IMG/VR virus record: IMGVR_UViG_2585427736_000016 | Source: a virus | Taxonomy: Duplodnaviria; Heunggongvirae; Uroviricota; Caudoviricetes | Length of the DNA stretch: 38,179 nucleotides | Reading direction: 5' to 3' (one strand) | Part shown: positions 3,186 through 18,826 of the stretch, piece by piece | Position numbering within the stretch: position 1 is the first letter of the stretch | Layout of the letters: the number at the start of each line of letters is the position of its first letter | Made by a program: the position numbers and the translations under genes | The notes under the pieces: generated by a model | What the model saw: only the letters and a program-made list of their open reading frames with translations | What the model was told of the DNA's origin: nothing | Database searches by the model: none

Positions 3186-3604
3186 TGGCTGCCTCCTTTG
3201 CGAAGCTCTGCAGCGAAATATACAGCTGCGGAAACAATAGCTGCATGTCGGTATTCACCATCAGAAAAGAGAGAATCTCCCTTAAGTGCATTGACGATAC
3301 TCTGATGATTTTTTGCCAGCATCTCCACACCCTGCGCCCGTACTTCAGCCAGGAAAGCATCGGTGGCTGGGGTTTCCGTGAAGTTGTCCTCCCAACCGTA
3401 GTACTCCTGACGACAGAAGTTATTAAATTCCTTCTCCGACTGTTTAAGCGCCGCATTCTCCGCTGCCAGCGCCGCGCACTTGGCCTTCGCTTCAGCAAAT
3501 TTACGCACCAGATATTCAGCGTTTGTTTCGTTAACCTTTAAATCTCGTGGGATGCATTTACCTTTCAGAAAACCATCCATTTCAATTAGTGACATTTGTT
3601 TCAT
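3182..3604 (-). CDS. hypothetical early protein, 140 aa (Ead/Ea22-like by position and composition)
   Basis: ATG overlaps the upstream stop (ATGA); Ala/Lys-rich helical protein. Confidence 0.55.
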
Positions 3605-3783
3605 TTCTTCCCACTCCGCAACATCGCATTTAGATATTTGTTTTGATTCACTGACGGAAAAGAATTTCTCTTAAGCAATTCCTCTCTCGATGGCATTGGC
3701 TTTACGCGTTGGCGAATAATCATTTCTGCCGGAAGAATGCTGGGATTGTATGCAAGTCCTCTCATGGTAAATTCCTCAGTCAT
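3601..3783 (-). CDS. hypothetical protein, 60 aa
   Basis: Track ORF 3601..3915 trimmed to the ATG at 3783, which overlaps the stop of the upstream gene (ATGACTGA). Confidence 0.4.
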
Positions 3784-15702: not shown

Positions 15703-15740
15703 TTGACTTTTTGAATAAAGTTGGGTAAATTTGACTCAAG
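15703..15740 (+). promoter_or_regulatory. late promoter PR' with Q-utilisation region
   Basis: -35 TTGACT (15703-15708), 17-bp spacer, -10 TAAATT (15726-15731); flanking sequence matches lambda PR' as recalled. Confidence 0.65.
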
Positions 15741-16423
15741 AATGGCAGATTTATATCCGTTCACATTCTTTCAGTTTTTACCCACCTCATCTTTAAGTTC
15801 TAAGCGCACTGACATGCGCATCATAAACTCGAGAGCACATAGGAATAGAGCCTGAGAAATATCGCTTTTGGCGACTTCTCTCGTGGTGATATTTCTATGT
15901 CAGCAGGCTCTAATATCTATGTGGTTCGCCTATGTTAAAACGTGAAGATGCATTGAGACTTTTTAATTACAATCCAGATACTGGAATTCTTACATGGAAG
16001 AATCCACCTCGGTCTTCTAGATTTATTTATGGCGCTGTTGTTGGCTATAAAACAAATGGATATCTGCAGGTAAAACTTTATGGAATGCGGCTATATGTCC
16101 ATAGAATTGCATGGCTGATGGTTTACAATGATTGGCCAACCGATGTGATTGACCATATTAATGGTGATAGGTCTGATAACCGGATAGCCAATCTTCGTGT
16201 TGTTACTAACACTCAAAACTCATGGAACAGCAAGATGAGGAAAAACAATTCATCTGGTGTGAAGGGGGTGACTTTTAATTCTGCTGCAAACAAGTGGGTT
16301 GGAAGAATTAGGGTCAATGGTAAAAGGATTCATGTAGGGTGTTTTGACGATATCGAGGAGGCGAGAAAGGCAATGGAAAATGCCAGGATAAAATATCATG
16401 GTGAATTCTCCAGTATGGGATAG
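15741..16423 (+). mobile_element. about 0.68-kb AT-rich insertion in the PR' leader carrying a freestanding HNH homing-endonuclease gene
   Basis: Relative to recalled lambda, where PR' runs directly into the 6S leader (...TTGACTCAACGATGGGTTAATTCGCTCG...), the window has TTGACTCAAG, about 680 bp of lower-GC DNA, then GATGGGTTAATTCGCTCG. Confidence 0.5.
15932..16423 (+). CDS. HNH homing endonuclease with C-terminal AP2-type DNA-binding domain, 163 aa
   Basis: HNH motif region ...VIDHINGDRSDNRIANLRVVTNTQNSWN...; C-terminal GVKGVTFNSAANKWVGRIRVNGKRIHVGCFDDIEEARKAMENARIKYHGEF is an AP2-like domain; no obvious SD; stop codon lies at the right insertion junction. Confidence 0.8.
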   Translation: MLKREDALRLFNYNPDTGILTWKNPPRSSRFIYGAVVGYKTNGYLQVKLYGMRLYVHRIAWLMVYNDWPTDVIDHINGDRSDNRIANLRVVTNTQNSWNSKMRKNNSSGVKGVTFNSAANKWVGRIRVNGKRIHVGCFDDIEEARKAMENARIKYHGEFSSMG

Positions 16424-16552
16424 ATGGGTTAATTCGCTCGTTGTGGTAGTGAGATGAAAAGAGGCGGCGCTTACTACCGATTCCGCCTAGTTGGTCACTT
16501 CGACGCATCGTCTGGAACTCCAACCACCGCAGGCTGAGAGGTCTGTAGAATG

Positions 16553-16613
16553 CAATCCCGAAACAGTTAGCAGGTAATAGTTAGAGCCTGCATAACGGTT
16601 TCGGGATTTTTTA
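16553..16613 (+). terminator. tR'-type terminator (end of the lambda-like 6S leader)
   Basis: Long hairpin AATCCCGAAAC...GTTTCGGGATT followed by TTTTTT; region 16424-16613 matches the lambda 6S RNA region as recalled. Confidence 0.65.
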
Positions 16614-17012
16614 TATCTGTGTAACAGGTAAGAGCATTCTCCCTTATGGGGCTTGGCTTAAATGCATTGAGTGCTCTTTCCGTTGTGCTGAATTAAGCGA
16701 ACACCGGAAGCAGAACCGGATCACCAAATGCGTACAGGCGTCATCGCCGCCCAGCAACAGCACAACCCAAACTGAGCCGTAGCCACTGGCTATCATGAAC
16801 TCATCAGTGATAGTTACGCTGCGGCCTTCTACACATGATCTTCGTGAAAGCGGGTGGCAGGAGGTCGCGCTAACAACCTCCTGCCGTTTTGCCCGTGCAT
16901 ATCGGTCACGAACAAATCTGATTACTAAACACAGTAGCCTGGATTTGTTCTATCAGTAATCGACCTTATTCCTAATTAAATAGAGCAAATCCCCTCAATG
17001 AAGGGGTAGAGC

Positions 17013-17216
17013 ATGTACCGTATGGACAAAATCAGAGAATGGTTCAGTTACAGCTTCGGAGGACTGACTGCGATGGGTGGCATTCTCTCCCTGAATGACT
17101 GGGCTGTCATCATTGGTATTCTTTGTACTGTCGGCACATTTGGCATCAACTGGTACTACAAGCGCAAAGAGCGCGAGGACAGATTGAATGGCAATGTCAC
17201 CGGCACTACGAAATAG
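17013..17216 (+). CDS. class II holin, dual-start (probable pinholin / antiholin pair), 67 aa
   Basis: Two in-frame starts, MYRMDK (ATG 17013 and ATG 17022); two TM helices; SD AAGGGG lies in hairpin CCCCT-caatga-AGGGG (16991-17006); followed by a SAR endolysin. Confidence 0.75.
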
Positions 17217-17691
17217 CGTAATAGCGGCGATAAGTGGCGGGGCTATTGCTATAGCATCTGTGTTAATCACTGGCCCGAGTGGTAACGATGGTCTGGAAGG
17301 TGTCAGCTACATACCATATAAAGATATCGTTGGTGTATGGACTGTATGTCACGGACACACCGGAAAAGACATCATGCTCGGTAAAACGTATACCGAAGCA
17401 GAATGCAAAGCCCTCCTGAATAAAGACCTTTCCACGGTCGCCAGACAAATTAACCCGTACATCAAAGTCGATATACCGGAAACAACGCGCGGCGCTCTTT
17501 ATTCGTTCGTCTATAACGTGGGCGCAGGCAATTTCAGAACATCGACGCTTCTTCGCAAAATCAACCAGGGCGATATCAAGGGCGCATGTGACCAGCTACG
17601 TCGCTGGACATACGCTGGCGGTAAGCAATGGAAAGGGCTGATGACTCGCCGTGAGATTGAGCGTGAAGTCTGTTTGTGGGGGCAACAATGA
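17188..17691 (+). CDS. SAR endolysin (T4-lysozyme-type muramidase with N-terminal signal-anchor-release domain), 167 aa
   Basis: Gly/Ala-rich weakly hydrophobic N-terminal segment ([19 protein letters not shown]) then a lysozyme core; resembles the phage 21 endolysin as recalled. Confidence 0.85.
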
Positions 17692-18125
17692 GCAGAGTAA
17701 CCGCGATTATCTCCGCTCTGGTTATCTGCATCATCGTCTGCCTGTCATGGGCTGTTAATCATTACCGTGATAACGCCATCGCCTACAAAGAACAGCGAGA
17801 TAAAGCCACATCCACAATCGCTGATATGCAGAAGCGTCAACGTGACGTAGCAGAACTCGACGCCAGATATACAAAGGAGCTTGCTGATGCTAACGCGACT
17901 ATCGAAAGTCTCCGTGCTGATGTTTCTGCTGGTCGTAAGCGCCTGCAAGTCGCCGCCACCTGTGCAAAGTCAACGACCGGAGCCAGCAGCATGGGCGATG
18001 GAGAAAGCCCAGGACTTACAGCAGATGCTGAACTCAATTATTACCGTCTCCGAAGTGGAATCGACAGGATAACCGCGCAGGTTAACTACCTGCAGGAATA
18101 CATCAGGACGCAATGCCTTCGATGA
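17688..18125 (+). CDS. Rz: Rz i-spanin, 145 aa
   Basis: [31 protein letters not shown]... matches the lambda Rz N-terminus as recalled; ATGA overlap with the endolysin. Confidence 0.85.
17887..18072 (+). CDS. Rz1: Rz1 o-spanin lipoprotein embedded in the +1 frame of Rz, 61 aa
   Basis: Signal peptide with lipobox LVVSAC then proline-rich segment ([16 protein letters not shown]), entirely inside Rz. Confidence 0.7.
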
Positions 18126-18300
18126 TAGCGATAATTTTACTCATCATCCTTCACATCTGGCTCTGTAGACAGGGTGGTGATCACTTCTGGAGTGAATCCA
18201 GATTAAACATCTCATTGCTGATGCTTGATATTGAGCATCTGGCGCGCGGTAAGGGGCTGCGTTGAGATAAGAGCCAGTCATCACAAACACCAGGATTTAG

Positions 18301-18322
18301 CCTCGCATTCGCGGGGTTTTTT
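18301..18322 (+). terminator. candidate rho-independent terminator after the lysis cassette
   Basis: CCUCGC-auuc-GCGGGG (one G-U pair) then TTTTTTATT. Confidence 0.5.
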
Positions 18323-18346: not shown

Positions 18347-18826
18347 ATGACCCAGCATATTGGCGTAAAACTGATTAACGCCTTTCCGATGACGAGACAG
18401 GCATATAACGATTTTCGTGGCTGGCAGCTTCCTGCCGGAGAAAACGGCGAGGACGAAGGCTATCTGGTTGAATATCTGGATGGCGGAAAACCTAACACCG
18501 ATCGCTTTGATGGCTACGTTAGCTGGAGTCCAAAAGAAGTATTCGAAAAGGCTTATCGTCCGGTATCAGGACTAAGTTTCGGCCTTGCCATGGAAGCGTT
18601 AAAACAGGGCAAAAGTTTGCAGCGGGCAGGATGGAATGGGAAAGACCAGTTTGTTTATCTCGTGAAAGGGGAAAAATTAGCGTCTGCGTTGGGTTATGGT
18701 TTTGGCGAATATGTTGGCGAGCCAACTTTCAATGACACGCTTGTATTGAAAAACTCACAGAACCGCCTTGCTACATGGGTTCCATCCATTGGTGACATGA
18801 TGGCTGAAGACTGGCAAATCATTTAA
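18347..18826 (+). CDS. two-domain accessory protein, 159 aa; C-terminal half possibly DUF2829/Tad2-like
   Basis: C-terminal ...AMEALKQGKSLQRAGWNGKDQFVYL...WVPSIGDMMAEDWQII fits my recollection of the DUF2829 signature (A-L-K-x-G-K...R-x-G-W-N-G); N-terminal 70 aa unassigned. Confidence 0.55.
   Translation: MTQHIGVKLINAFPMTRQAYNDFRGWQLPAGENGEDEGYLVEYLDGGKPNTDRFDGYVSWSPKEVFEKAYRPVSGLSFGLAMEALKQGKSLQRAGWNGKDQFVYLVKGEKLASALGYGFGEYVGEPTFNDTLVLKNSQNRLATWVPSIGDMMAEDWQII

Follow-up and report, generated by a model that had tools for sequence, protein, structure and literature searches.

A probable homing-endonuclease-like HNH-AP2 cassette with a structured leader RNA at the start of a lambda-type late transcript

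Free-standing genes for endonucleases of the HNH-AP2 ("HNN-AP2") kind are known from the Xanthomonas phages Xop411, Xp10, and OP1 and from Salmonella, Escherichia, and Klebsiella siphophages. Those of the Xanthomonas phages are present in some and absent from other related genomes and form a series of decay (PMC2248197). The late leader of phage lambda runs from the promoter PR' through qut and the 6S sequence to the terminator tR'. Its transcript begins with AACGAT at +1 to +6, a -10-like pause element of which A+2 and T+6 are required (PMC4005639), and PR' is constitutive in lysogens, where it normally yields a short RNA terminated at tR', as in Stx phages (PMC7547250). Here we describe a locus at which these two systems meet. 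The DNA analyzed, referred to below as the window, is a stretch of 38,179 nucleotides (IMG/VR record IMGVR_UViG_2585427736_000016) that constitutes a complete P22-like prophage; homologous E. coli prophages are annotated. Behind its Q antiterminator gene, a cassette with a 163-amino-acid (aa) HNH-AP2 open reading frame (ORF) interrupts the late leader (Table 1). Judging from its sequence, the region is likely a free-standing, homing-endonuclease-like cassette that invaded the lambda-type PR' initial transcribed region of the prophage. The nuclease family is known. New are its slot, right at the beginning of the Q-dependent late transcript, where the pause hexamer comes with the cassette, and the doubly pseudoknotted leader RNA that the cassette contains.

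In lambda, PR' and the 6S leader are contiguous, as a sequence-only reading of the window had stated, and an uninterrupted lambda-type PR'-6S-tR' leader was also found in about 397 of 5426 complete E. coli genomes; lambda has no comparable sequence between the two. In the window, homology to lambda broke off at 15739 (+2, with the transcription start A15738 placed by homology to lambda) and returned at G16423 (lambda +4) as GATGGGTTAATTCG, with a single lambda base, C(+3), replaced. The lambda transcript begins AACGATGGGTTAATTCG, and its counterpart here would begin AA and continue as GAATGGCAGATTT. At 0.400, the GC content of the insert was lower than that of Q (0.505) or of the 6S leader (0.495), and G16423 was both the last base of the TAG stop codon of the ORF (16421-16423) and the first base of the resumed lambda homology. 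These results bear out two earlier proposals, an insert of about 680 bp with a lower GC content and a stop codon that coincides with its right end. The left end had been put 2 to 5 nt after the promoter; the insert itself stood, but this distance did not, since the cassette starts 2 nt after the transcription start, which is 8 nt after the -10 hexamer. The 6S/tR'-type leader and terminator expected downstream were found at 92-97% identity to lambda and mEp506, and the tR' hairpin (approximately 16554-16606, followed by a U tract) folded at -31.3 kcal/mol (z = -7.1). Compared to lambda, the 6S sequence is thus preceded by a 683-bp insert, and what is a short noncoding RNA there would become the 3' end of an mRNA.

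A promoter scan and the lambda alignment agreed on the PR'-type promoter TTGACT-17-TAAATT that had been read behind Q. It starts 43 bases 3' of the Q gene and differs from lambda PR' by two substitutions. From -35 to +2, it is identical to the promoters of mEp506 and HK620 (the HK620 record labels the matching sequence pR') except for one base of the -35-like TTGACT, which gives TGACT here and TGACC there. The promoter, the Q-binding element, the -35-like TTGACT, the 6S sequence, tR', and the presence of a -10-like element at +1 to +6 are common to the window and to the lambda and StxS leaders, whereas other bases stand in place of those of lambda at +3, at +4, and everywhere from +9 on, the +16/+17 pause site among them.

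The hexamer that spans the left junction, AAGAAT, agrees with TATAAT at four of six positions, compared to three of six for lambda AACGAT. We aligned nine late leaders, three from phages without a homing endonuclease gene (HEG) and six from cassette lineages. The HEG-less leaders read AACGATGG(G), and the cassette lineages read AAGAATGGC, AAGAATGGG, AATGCTGGG, AATGCTAGG (two lineages), and AATGATAGG. A+1, A+2, T+6, and G+8 were unchanged in all nine, a constancy that fits selection for the sigma70-dependent pause that Q needs. The earlier suggestion that the -10-like hexamer is kept is therefore well founded, A+2 and T+6 being invariant in all six cassette lineages. According to this alignment, the cassette lineages supply their own sequence from +3 onward, including their own version of the pause hexamer (AAGAAT GG in the window).

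Both Pfam domains of the ORF, which had also been proposed before, scored above their cutoffs: HNH_3 (PF13392) reached 61.5 bits versus 24.8 and covered profile positions 2-45 of 46, and AP2 (PF00847) passed marginally, at 33.6 bits versus 33.3. In an alignment with 26 homologues, H57, D74, H75, N83, N87, R89, and N99 were invariant, and N96 was conserved in at least 90%, so that neither the catalytic His of the HNH motif with its preceding Asp (D74-H75) nor the metal-binding or structural Asn residues N83, N87, and N99 are missing. The family profile matched I-HmuI (PDB 1u3e) at 5.3e-7 over the HNH motif, with DH...N...N aligned, and plant AP2 domains over the C-terminal half (WRI1 [7wq5] at 8.2e-8 and TEM1 at 5.9e-5). 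The ratio of nonsynonymous to synonymous substitution rates (dN/dS) was 0.077 relative to the 86%-identical protein of locus L007, indicating that the ORF is under purifying selection. On these grounds, the ORF encodes a genuine HNH_3+AP2 protein that has kept its catalytic residues and is predicted to cleave DNA.

A tblastn search returned relatives in 3810 phage records, the best with 46.6% identity and none reaching 60% among the matches listed. The two-domain architecture is that of the HNN-AP2 genes, with which the ORF has the boxes HR.AW, WP, DH, DNR, NLR, and N in common; identity was 45.5% to the Xop411 copy and up to 46.6% to coliphage copies. Unlike those genes, the clade represented in the window is bound to one slot in temperate lambdoid phages, behind Q at the very start of the late transcript, and has a conserved structured leader RNA. 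I-HmuI, a nicking homing endonuclease of Bacillus phage SPO1, has the D-H dyad and the downstream Asn residues in common with the ORF, but it is intron encoded, whereas no intron is found here, and the similarity spans only about 60 residues. The DNA-binding modules of I-HmuI also differ from AP2.

HNH proteins of another kind are common in lambdoid phages. They resemble HK97 gp74, an accessory nuclease that works with terminase in DNA packaging, and terminase-adjacent examples occur in locus L023 (5121-5492) and in HK106. We give almost no credence to such a function for the protein studied here. Its gene lies between Q and the holin gene rather than beside terminase, the protein is of the HNH_3+AP2 type and not of the gp74 type, the prophage that carries it is P22-like and has a terminase large subunit of the PBSX family, and among near-identical prophages some have no such gene and others only a broken one.

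The cassette was present in 16 of the 5426 complete E. coli genomes at 98.9-100% identity. The three carrier prophages inspected were not alike in their nin genes, nor in the gene that comes next after lysis. Set against the roughly 397 uninterrupted leaders, the cassette is therefore present or absent at one precise site (+2/+4) in homologous genomes, as is typical of homing genes. The right-flank site, GAGAT(G/A)AAAAG, occurred with G and with A in both HEG-plus and HEG-less alleles, a distribution that would fit either repeated invasion or later recombination. Among the carriers of the cassette, the prophage of E. coli CH4794 (L002) has, in addition, a NUMOD4-motif HNH endonuclease gene in the nin region (985-1494), and about 420 extra bp separate its 6S leader from its holin gene.

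Decayed copies were also found. Among the IMG/VR copies, L012 and L020 had a 320-bp internal deletion in the cassette, and L016 and L031 had a 1-nt length difference, an apparent frameshift that breaks the ORF. In two further leaders (L004, 3001-3146, and L006, 2890-3075), window sequence 15740-15854 was joined directly to the 3' half of tR', and there was no HNH gene. The join lies at TAGAGCCTG, a 9-bp direct repeat whose second copy is inside tR'. All that remains in them of the leader RNA described below is its 5' half, so they are deletion scars. We had considered them an independent ancestral leader ("Type B leader"), an interpretation that we rejected because half an RNA element ending exactly at the 9-bp repeat of tR' marks a deletion derivative. 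A new terminator hairpin is formed in the scar leaders by CUCGAGAG(CA) together with (UGC)UUUCGGG of the 3' arm of tR'; L006 contains, in addition, a GC-rich hairpin insert with a U-rich tail. Deletions, apparent frameshifts, and scars together correspond to the cycle of invasion, degeneration, and loss that homing genes undergo. We infer homing from this decay, from the presence/absence polymorphism, and from the recurrence of the slot.

The 192 nt of the cassette that precede the ATG of the ORF had been left uninterpreted by the sequence-only reading. They contain a conserved leader RNA, and by this evidence the cassette is a leader-plus-ORF module, not a bare gene. The RNA consists of a short hairpin, H1, and a long hairpin made up of H0, H2 outer, and H2 inner. 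On its 3' side, the basal helix reaches up to or into the Shine-Dalgarno sequence, and the end of the RNA adjoins a weak ribosome-binding site. In an alignment fitted to the covariance model, the nested helices were 93.4% paired, with compensatory changes in 17 of 25 pairs; none of 500 shuffles equaled this, and slid controls were 31-46% paired. G-U pairs occurred solely in the sense orientation, and covariance-model scores of the reverse strand were low, which indicates an RNA on the positive strand. Across lineages saturated at synonymous sites (pS 0.76-0.88), identity over positions 15804-15920 was still 74-95%.

Two pseudoknots complete the structure. In PK1, the H1 loop pairs with a bulge in the 3' arm, and nine versions were observed: CUGACA/UGUCAG (the window), CUGACG/CGUCAG, UCUCAC/GUGAGA, UCGCA/UGCGA, UCGCAC/GUGCGA, UUCUCG/CGAGAA, CCGCA/UGCGG, UCACAC/GUGUGA, and UAGCAC/GUGCUA. 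In PK2, the linker between H1 and H2 pairs with the apical loop, in about nine versions that include CGAGAG/CUCUCG (the window), CAUGAG/CUCAUG, CCCGAG/CUCGGG, CCAAGAGC/GCUCUUGG, CACCGA/UCGGUG, and CACAGAA/UUCUGUG. Because a MAFFT alignment of the diverged copies misaligns the H1 loops, the pseudoknots were scored with scripts for register-free duplexes and complementarity. The cognate PK1 partner ranked first in 21 of 23 sequences, and cognate PK2 pairs had at least 6 Watson-Crick bp in all 14 types, compared to a mean of 4.1 for noncognate pairs. The loop sequences that form the pseudoknots are thus hypervariable, whereas the stems are conserved. An alternative structure from RNAalifold, which pairs CAUAGGAAUAGA with UAUUUCUAUG and GCCUGAGA with UCUCGUGG, was rejected since it breaks in the Xenorhabdus group; unlike it, the long hairpin and both pseudoknots are kept everywhere.

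The leader RNA appears to be undescribed. Rfam 15 returned no match at an E value of 1 or less for the window and four loci with diverged copies; at E values up to 10 on short stretches, there were only chance-level hairpin matches and none to RF01695. The papers searched contained no description of the leader RNA or of a lambdoid late leader that harbors a homing endonuclease. A motif scan placed the element in 25 IMG/VR contigs and at 21 loci of species-representative genomes (20 of Xenorhabdus and 1 of Morganella). At the latter, it follows the endolysin gene and a terminator and precedes a P22AR_N-, Rha-, or HNH-AP2-type ORF and then Rz. With the covariance model, diverged copies were found in E. 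coli prophages, mEp506, HK106, an Stx2a phage (two copies), and Klebsiella and Providencia phages, located 3' of the terminator of the lysis genes and directly 5' of Rha, KilA-N, GIY-YIG, or other ORFs (L004, 4663-4811; mEp506 [L005], 3501-3653; HK106 [L043], 1221-1366; Stx2a phage [L044], 152-300 and 1518-1667). Further loci with the element are L045, L046, L018-L036, and L048-L068. Across copies, the RNA is about 120-150 nt long. A blastn search with one diverged copy hit 155 phage records, 73 of them Stx2a-converting phages. The RNA occurs in lambdoid prophages of E. coli, Salmonella, Klebsiella, Xenorhabdus, Morganella, and Providencia, as well as Stx2a-converting phages. In Xenorhabdus beddingii (L058, 1139-1530), the RNA precedes an 80-aa ORF (MENQHRKINGYRELTQDEID...) that is unrelated to the other cargo compared. 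In the window, a second copy was not found after Rz, even with filters off.

The cargo of the leader RNA raises the possibility that the protein is a domesticated AP2-based DNA-binding regulator or an anti-defense factor, belonging with the Rha, KilA-N, and antirepressor-like genes that the same RNA heads, and that nuclease activity is irrelevant to it. A 2026 preprint about DNA-binding anti-CRISPR proteins of phages names the AP2 domain 14 times. A role of this kind is quite unlikely given that the catalytic dyad and the Asn residues of the HNH motif are invariant across 27 homologues and that dN/dS is low across the whole ORF.

A likeness, in logic only, exists to the c4 antisense RNA of P1 and P7 (RF01695) and to related processed RNAs by which antirepressor genes are controlled; c4 is also a structured RNA just 5' of antirepressor-type genes. 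In both c4 and the leader RNA, two short loop sequences pair with two upstream complements, and these sequences vary between phages yet remain complementary. The leader RNA differs in that it gave no covariance-model match to RF01695 and in that no downstream target sites of the a2/b2 type were found by eye. The leader could belong to an undescribed class of doubly pseudoknotted RNAs that gate nuclease and antirepressor-like morons (Rha, KilA-N, P22AR_N, GIY-YIG, and HNH-AP2) of lambdoid late operons, those of Stx2a phages among them, with the loop pairings (at least nine versions of PK1 and about nine of PK2) as specificity determinants comparable to c4 a'/b', acting in cis or in trans between coresident phages. 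We put this forward tentatively and rate its chances below even.

The slot behind Q was examined in the relatives of the ORF with 56-86% identity for which contigs were readable (L007, L008, L009/L010, L011 from Xenorhabdus, and L042). All six retrievable relatives lie 247-271 nt after a Q (Antiterm) gene, and these Q genes are of several types (254, 273, and 276 aa, plus two truncated genes). In leaders of the lambda, SI8/ES18, and HK620 types alike, the cassette is joined at the initial transcribed sequence. HEG-less Salmonella phage SI8 shares its promoter with L008, and behind this promoter SI8 has AACGATGGG, then a 6S-like leader and a tRNA; the right flank of L009 is an HK620-type leader. 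A relative with 48% identity lies in an unrelated context.

Several observations weigh against the reading of the region as an invading, homing-endonuclease-like cassette. Since the leader RNA also heads genes for proteins other than nucleases, the cassette may behave as a moron and not as a selfish element. The segment from +1 to +8 of PR' is a general mosaic joint of lambdoid phages, HK620 leaving lambda after AACGATGG, so the position could reflect ordinary recombination at a conserved sequence and not targeting by the nuclease. The L008 cassette replaces about 270 nt of leader plus tRNA and is not a clean insertion. The cassette was absent from all 50,697 records of sequenced phage isolates, so that its carriers may not be viable phages. 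Relative to lambda, +9 to +36 are replaced in the window, and the pause site reads A16-T17 in place of C16-G17; pausing and Q loading may thus be altered. Finally, L011 (approximately 1195-1240) and L042 (approximately 615-645) have an intrinsic terminator between promoter and leader RNA (GGCCUC..GAGGUC-U5 and GCCCC..GGGGC-U5, respectively), so constitutive expression is not general in the clade and is limited to the window/L007/L008 type. Judged by eye, a terminator of this kind may have left a degraded remnant at window positions 15775-15803.

The late leader of HK620 shows that such leaders of lambdoid phages may be long and mosaic. It spans about 650 nt from pR' to the annotated late terminator (L039, 1434-2106), but its extra sequence has no annotated gene and no HNH motif; an early terminator-like hairpin at approximately +30 to +65 is labeled "qut" in the record. 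A portion of this leader is found again in Klebsiella phages, as well as 3' of the L009 cassette.

These observations can be combined in an account in which a leader-RNA-plus-ORF module recombined passively at microhomology in the conserved initial transcribed sequence and was kept because it benefits the phage or the lysogen, e.g., by cutting superinfecting phages, with no drive of its own. The mosaic joint of HK620, which exists without a nuclease, the fixed late-operon slots at which the same RNA heads Rha, KilA-N, P22AR_N, GIY-YIG, and other genes, and the strong purifying selection on the ORF all accord with it. We nevertheless consider a passive moron unlikely, if far from negligible. 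The protein family repeatedly consists of free-standing, decaying endonuclease genes; decayed and deleted copies suggest that the gene is dispensable to its carrier; and only about 4% of the available leaders are occupied. In phage Dewey (L047, 835-1539), Rz and a terminator are followed by a complete leader RNA, an HNH-AP2-type ORF, the last 37 nt or so of a second, different leader, and a regulator gene, an arrangement that looks like a cassette landed inside a resident leader element.

If the region is a homing-endonuclease-like cassette, as we consider likely, a course of events can be proposed. In the lysogen, an RNA of about 875 nt (leader, HNH mRNA, and 6S) ending at tR' would be made from PR' in place of the usual 194-nt 6S RNA, as expected because PR' is constitutive and no positive-strand terminator was predicted between +1 and tR'. 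The weak hairpin at the 5' terminus of the transcript is not significant alone; stems of different sequence occupy the same position in relatives, GGGAGA/UCUCCC in L007 and GCUGGGAG/CUCCCAGC in L008. A promoter scan of the positive strand of the insert found no internal promoter upstream of the ATG, and its only sigma70-like site falls inside the ORF (15953-15982) and was discarded. A promoter at H1 was likewise discarded, its hexamers being poor by eye and the covariation arguing for an RNA instead. The cassette thus shows neither of the two marks of a moron as an independently expressed gene, a promoter and a terminator of its own; elsewhere, the leader RNA follows the terminator of the gene upstream. 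Constitutive expression of the ORF from PR' is thus plausible, although the leader RNA may limit translation. Two short reading frames of the leader region were not accepted as genes: one of 44 aa with a TTG start (15721-15855) had no Pfam match and overlaps the leader RNA, and an upstream ORF of 13 codons from 15898 is not conserved, its ATG being ACG in the Xenorhabdus group and L011.

After induction, Q would still load, since the Q-binding element and the -35-like TTGACT have been retained, as have A+2 and T+6 of the pause hexamer. Translation of the nuclease would probably be throttled or conditioned by the leader RNA. During coinfection or superinfection, the nuclease would nick or cut HEG-less lambdoid late leaders, or adjacent conserved DNA, and repair from the HEG-plus copy would spread the cassette; the insertion splits the target, which would protect the carrier. 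An attack on the empty late leaders of related phages, with spread by repair, is probable.

Two differences downstream of the cassette were noted. Positions 16614-16770 of the window differ where relatives carry tRNA-Asn and tRNA-Thr genes just after tR' (L037, 20882-21037; L005, 1836-1991; L004, 3148-3303), genes that occur in relatives both with and without the HNH cassette. The gene after Rz (18347-18826) encodes a Tad2-like (Thoeris anti-defense 2) domain (Pfam, 2.9e-22); it lies 3' of a terminator at approximately 18300-18322, and no copy of the leader RNA was found there.

Table 1. Features of the late-leader region of the window
Feature	Position	Strand	Basis or detail
Q antiterminator gene, lambda type, 207 aa	15037-15660	+	Pfam Antiterm, 6.6e-57; "antitermination protein" is the RefSeq name of the homologue in L002, L003, and L037
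PR' late promoter	15703-15731	+	-35 TTGACT, 15703-15708; 17-nt spacer with Q-binding element; -10 TAAATT, 15726-15731; promoter scan and alignment
-35-like TTGACT, kept	15731-15736	+	Just 5' of candidate pause hexamer
-10-like hexamer AAGAAT, candidate sigma70-dependent pause element	15738-15743	+	Lambda counterpart AACGAT
Weak 5'-terminal hairpin, AAGAAUG.../...CAUUCUU, then U-rich run	15738-15770	+	Fold of -6.2 kcal/mol, z = -1.0
Inserted cassette, 683 bp, 40% GC	15740-16422	+	Junctions versus lambda
Conserved leader RNA, 119 nt, doubly pseudoknotted	15804-15922	+	Covariance model R1
H1 hairpin	15804-15808 with 15815-15819	+	Loop CUGACA, 15809-15814
PK2a, CGAGAG	15830-15835	+	H1-H2 linker
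H0 helix	15837-15843 with 15916-15922	+	
H2 outer helix	15846-15854 with 15904-15912	+	
H2 inner helix	15855-15865 with 15886-15896	+	
PK2b, CUCUCG	15878-15883	+	Apical loop
PK1b, UGUCAG	15898-15903	+	Bulge of 3' arm
TAGAGCCTG direct repeat, copy 1	15846-15854	+	Copy 2, 16582-16590; L004 blastn pieces overlap by exactly these 9 nt
HNH-AP2 ("HNN-AP2") endonuclease ORF, 163 aa	15932-16423	+	HNH_3, aa 55-97 (nt 16094-16222); AP2, aa 108-157 (nt 16253-16402); Pfam
6S leader (lambda type, from lambda +4) ending in tR'	16423-16613	+	Identity to lambda and mEp506
Lysis genes	17013-18125	+	Holin, 17013-17216; endolysin, 17188-17691; Rz, 17676-18125; first Q-dependent late genes; ORF list and homologous prophage annotation

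Few regulatory sequences have been studied as well as the initial 20 nt of the lambda late transcript, with the sigma-dependent pause and Q loading, and here everything from +3 onward has been replaced by a mobile cassette with its own pause hexamer. The cassette lineages therefore offer a set of initial transcribed sequences for comparison, all presumably compatible with Q. Through the cassette, a widespread leader RNA, well supported by covariation, also came to light; if the proposed role is correct, this RNA lets the nuclease gene ride the constitutive PR' transcript without free translation in the lysogen. The insertion would turn the constitutive 6S-type RNA of the lysogen into a nuclease mRNA, which suggests homing expressed from the prophage or exclusion aimed at incoming relatives.

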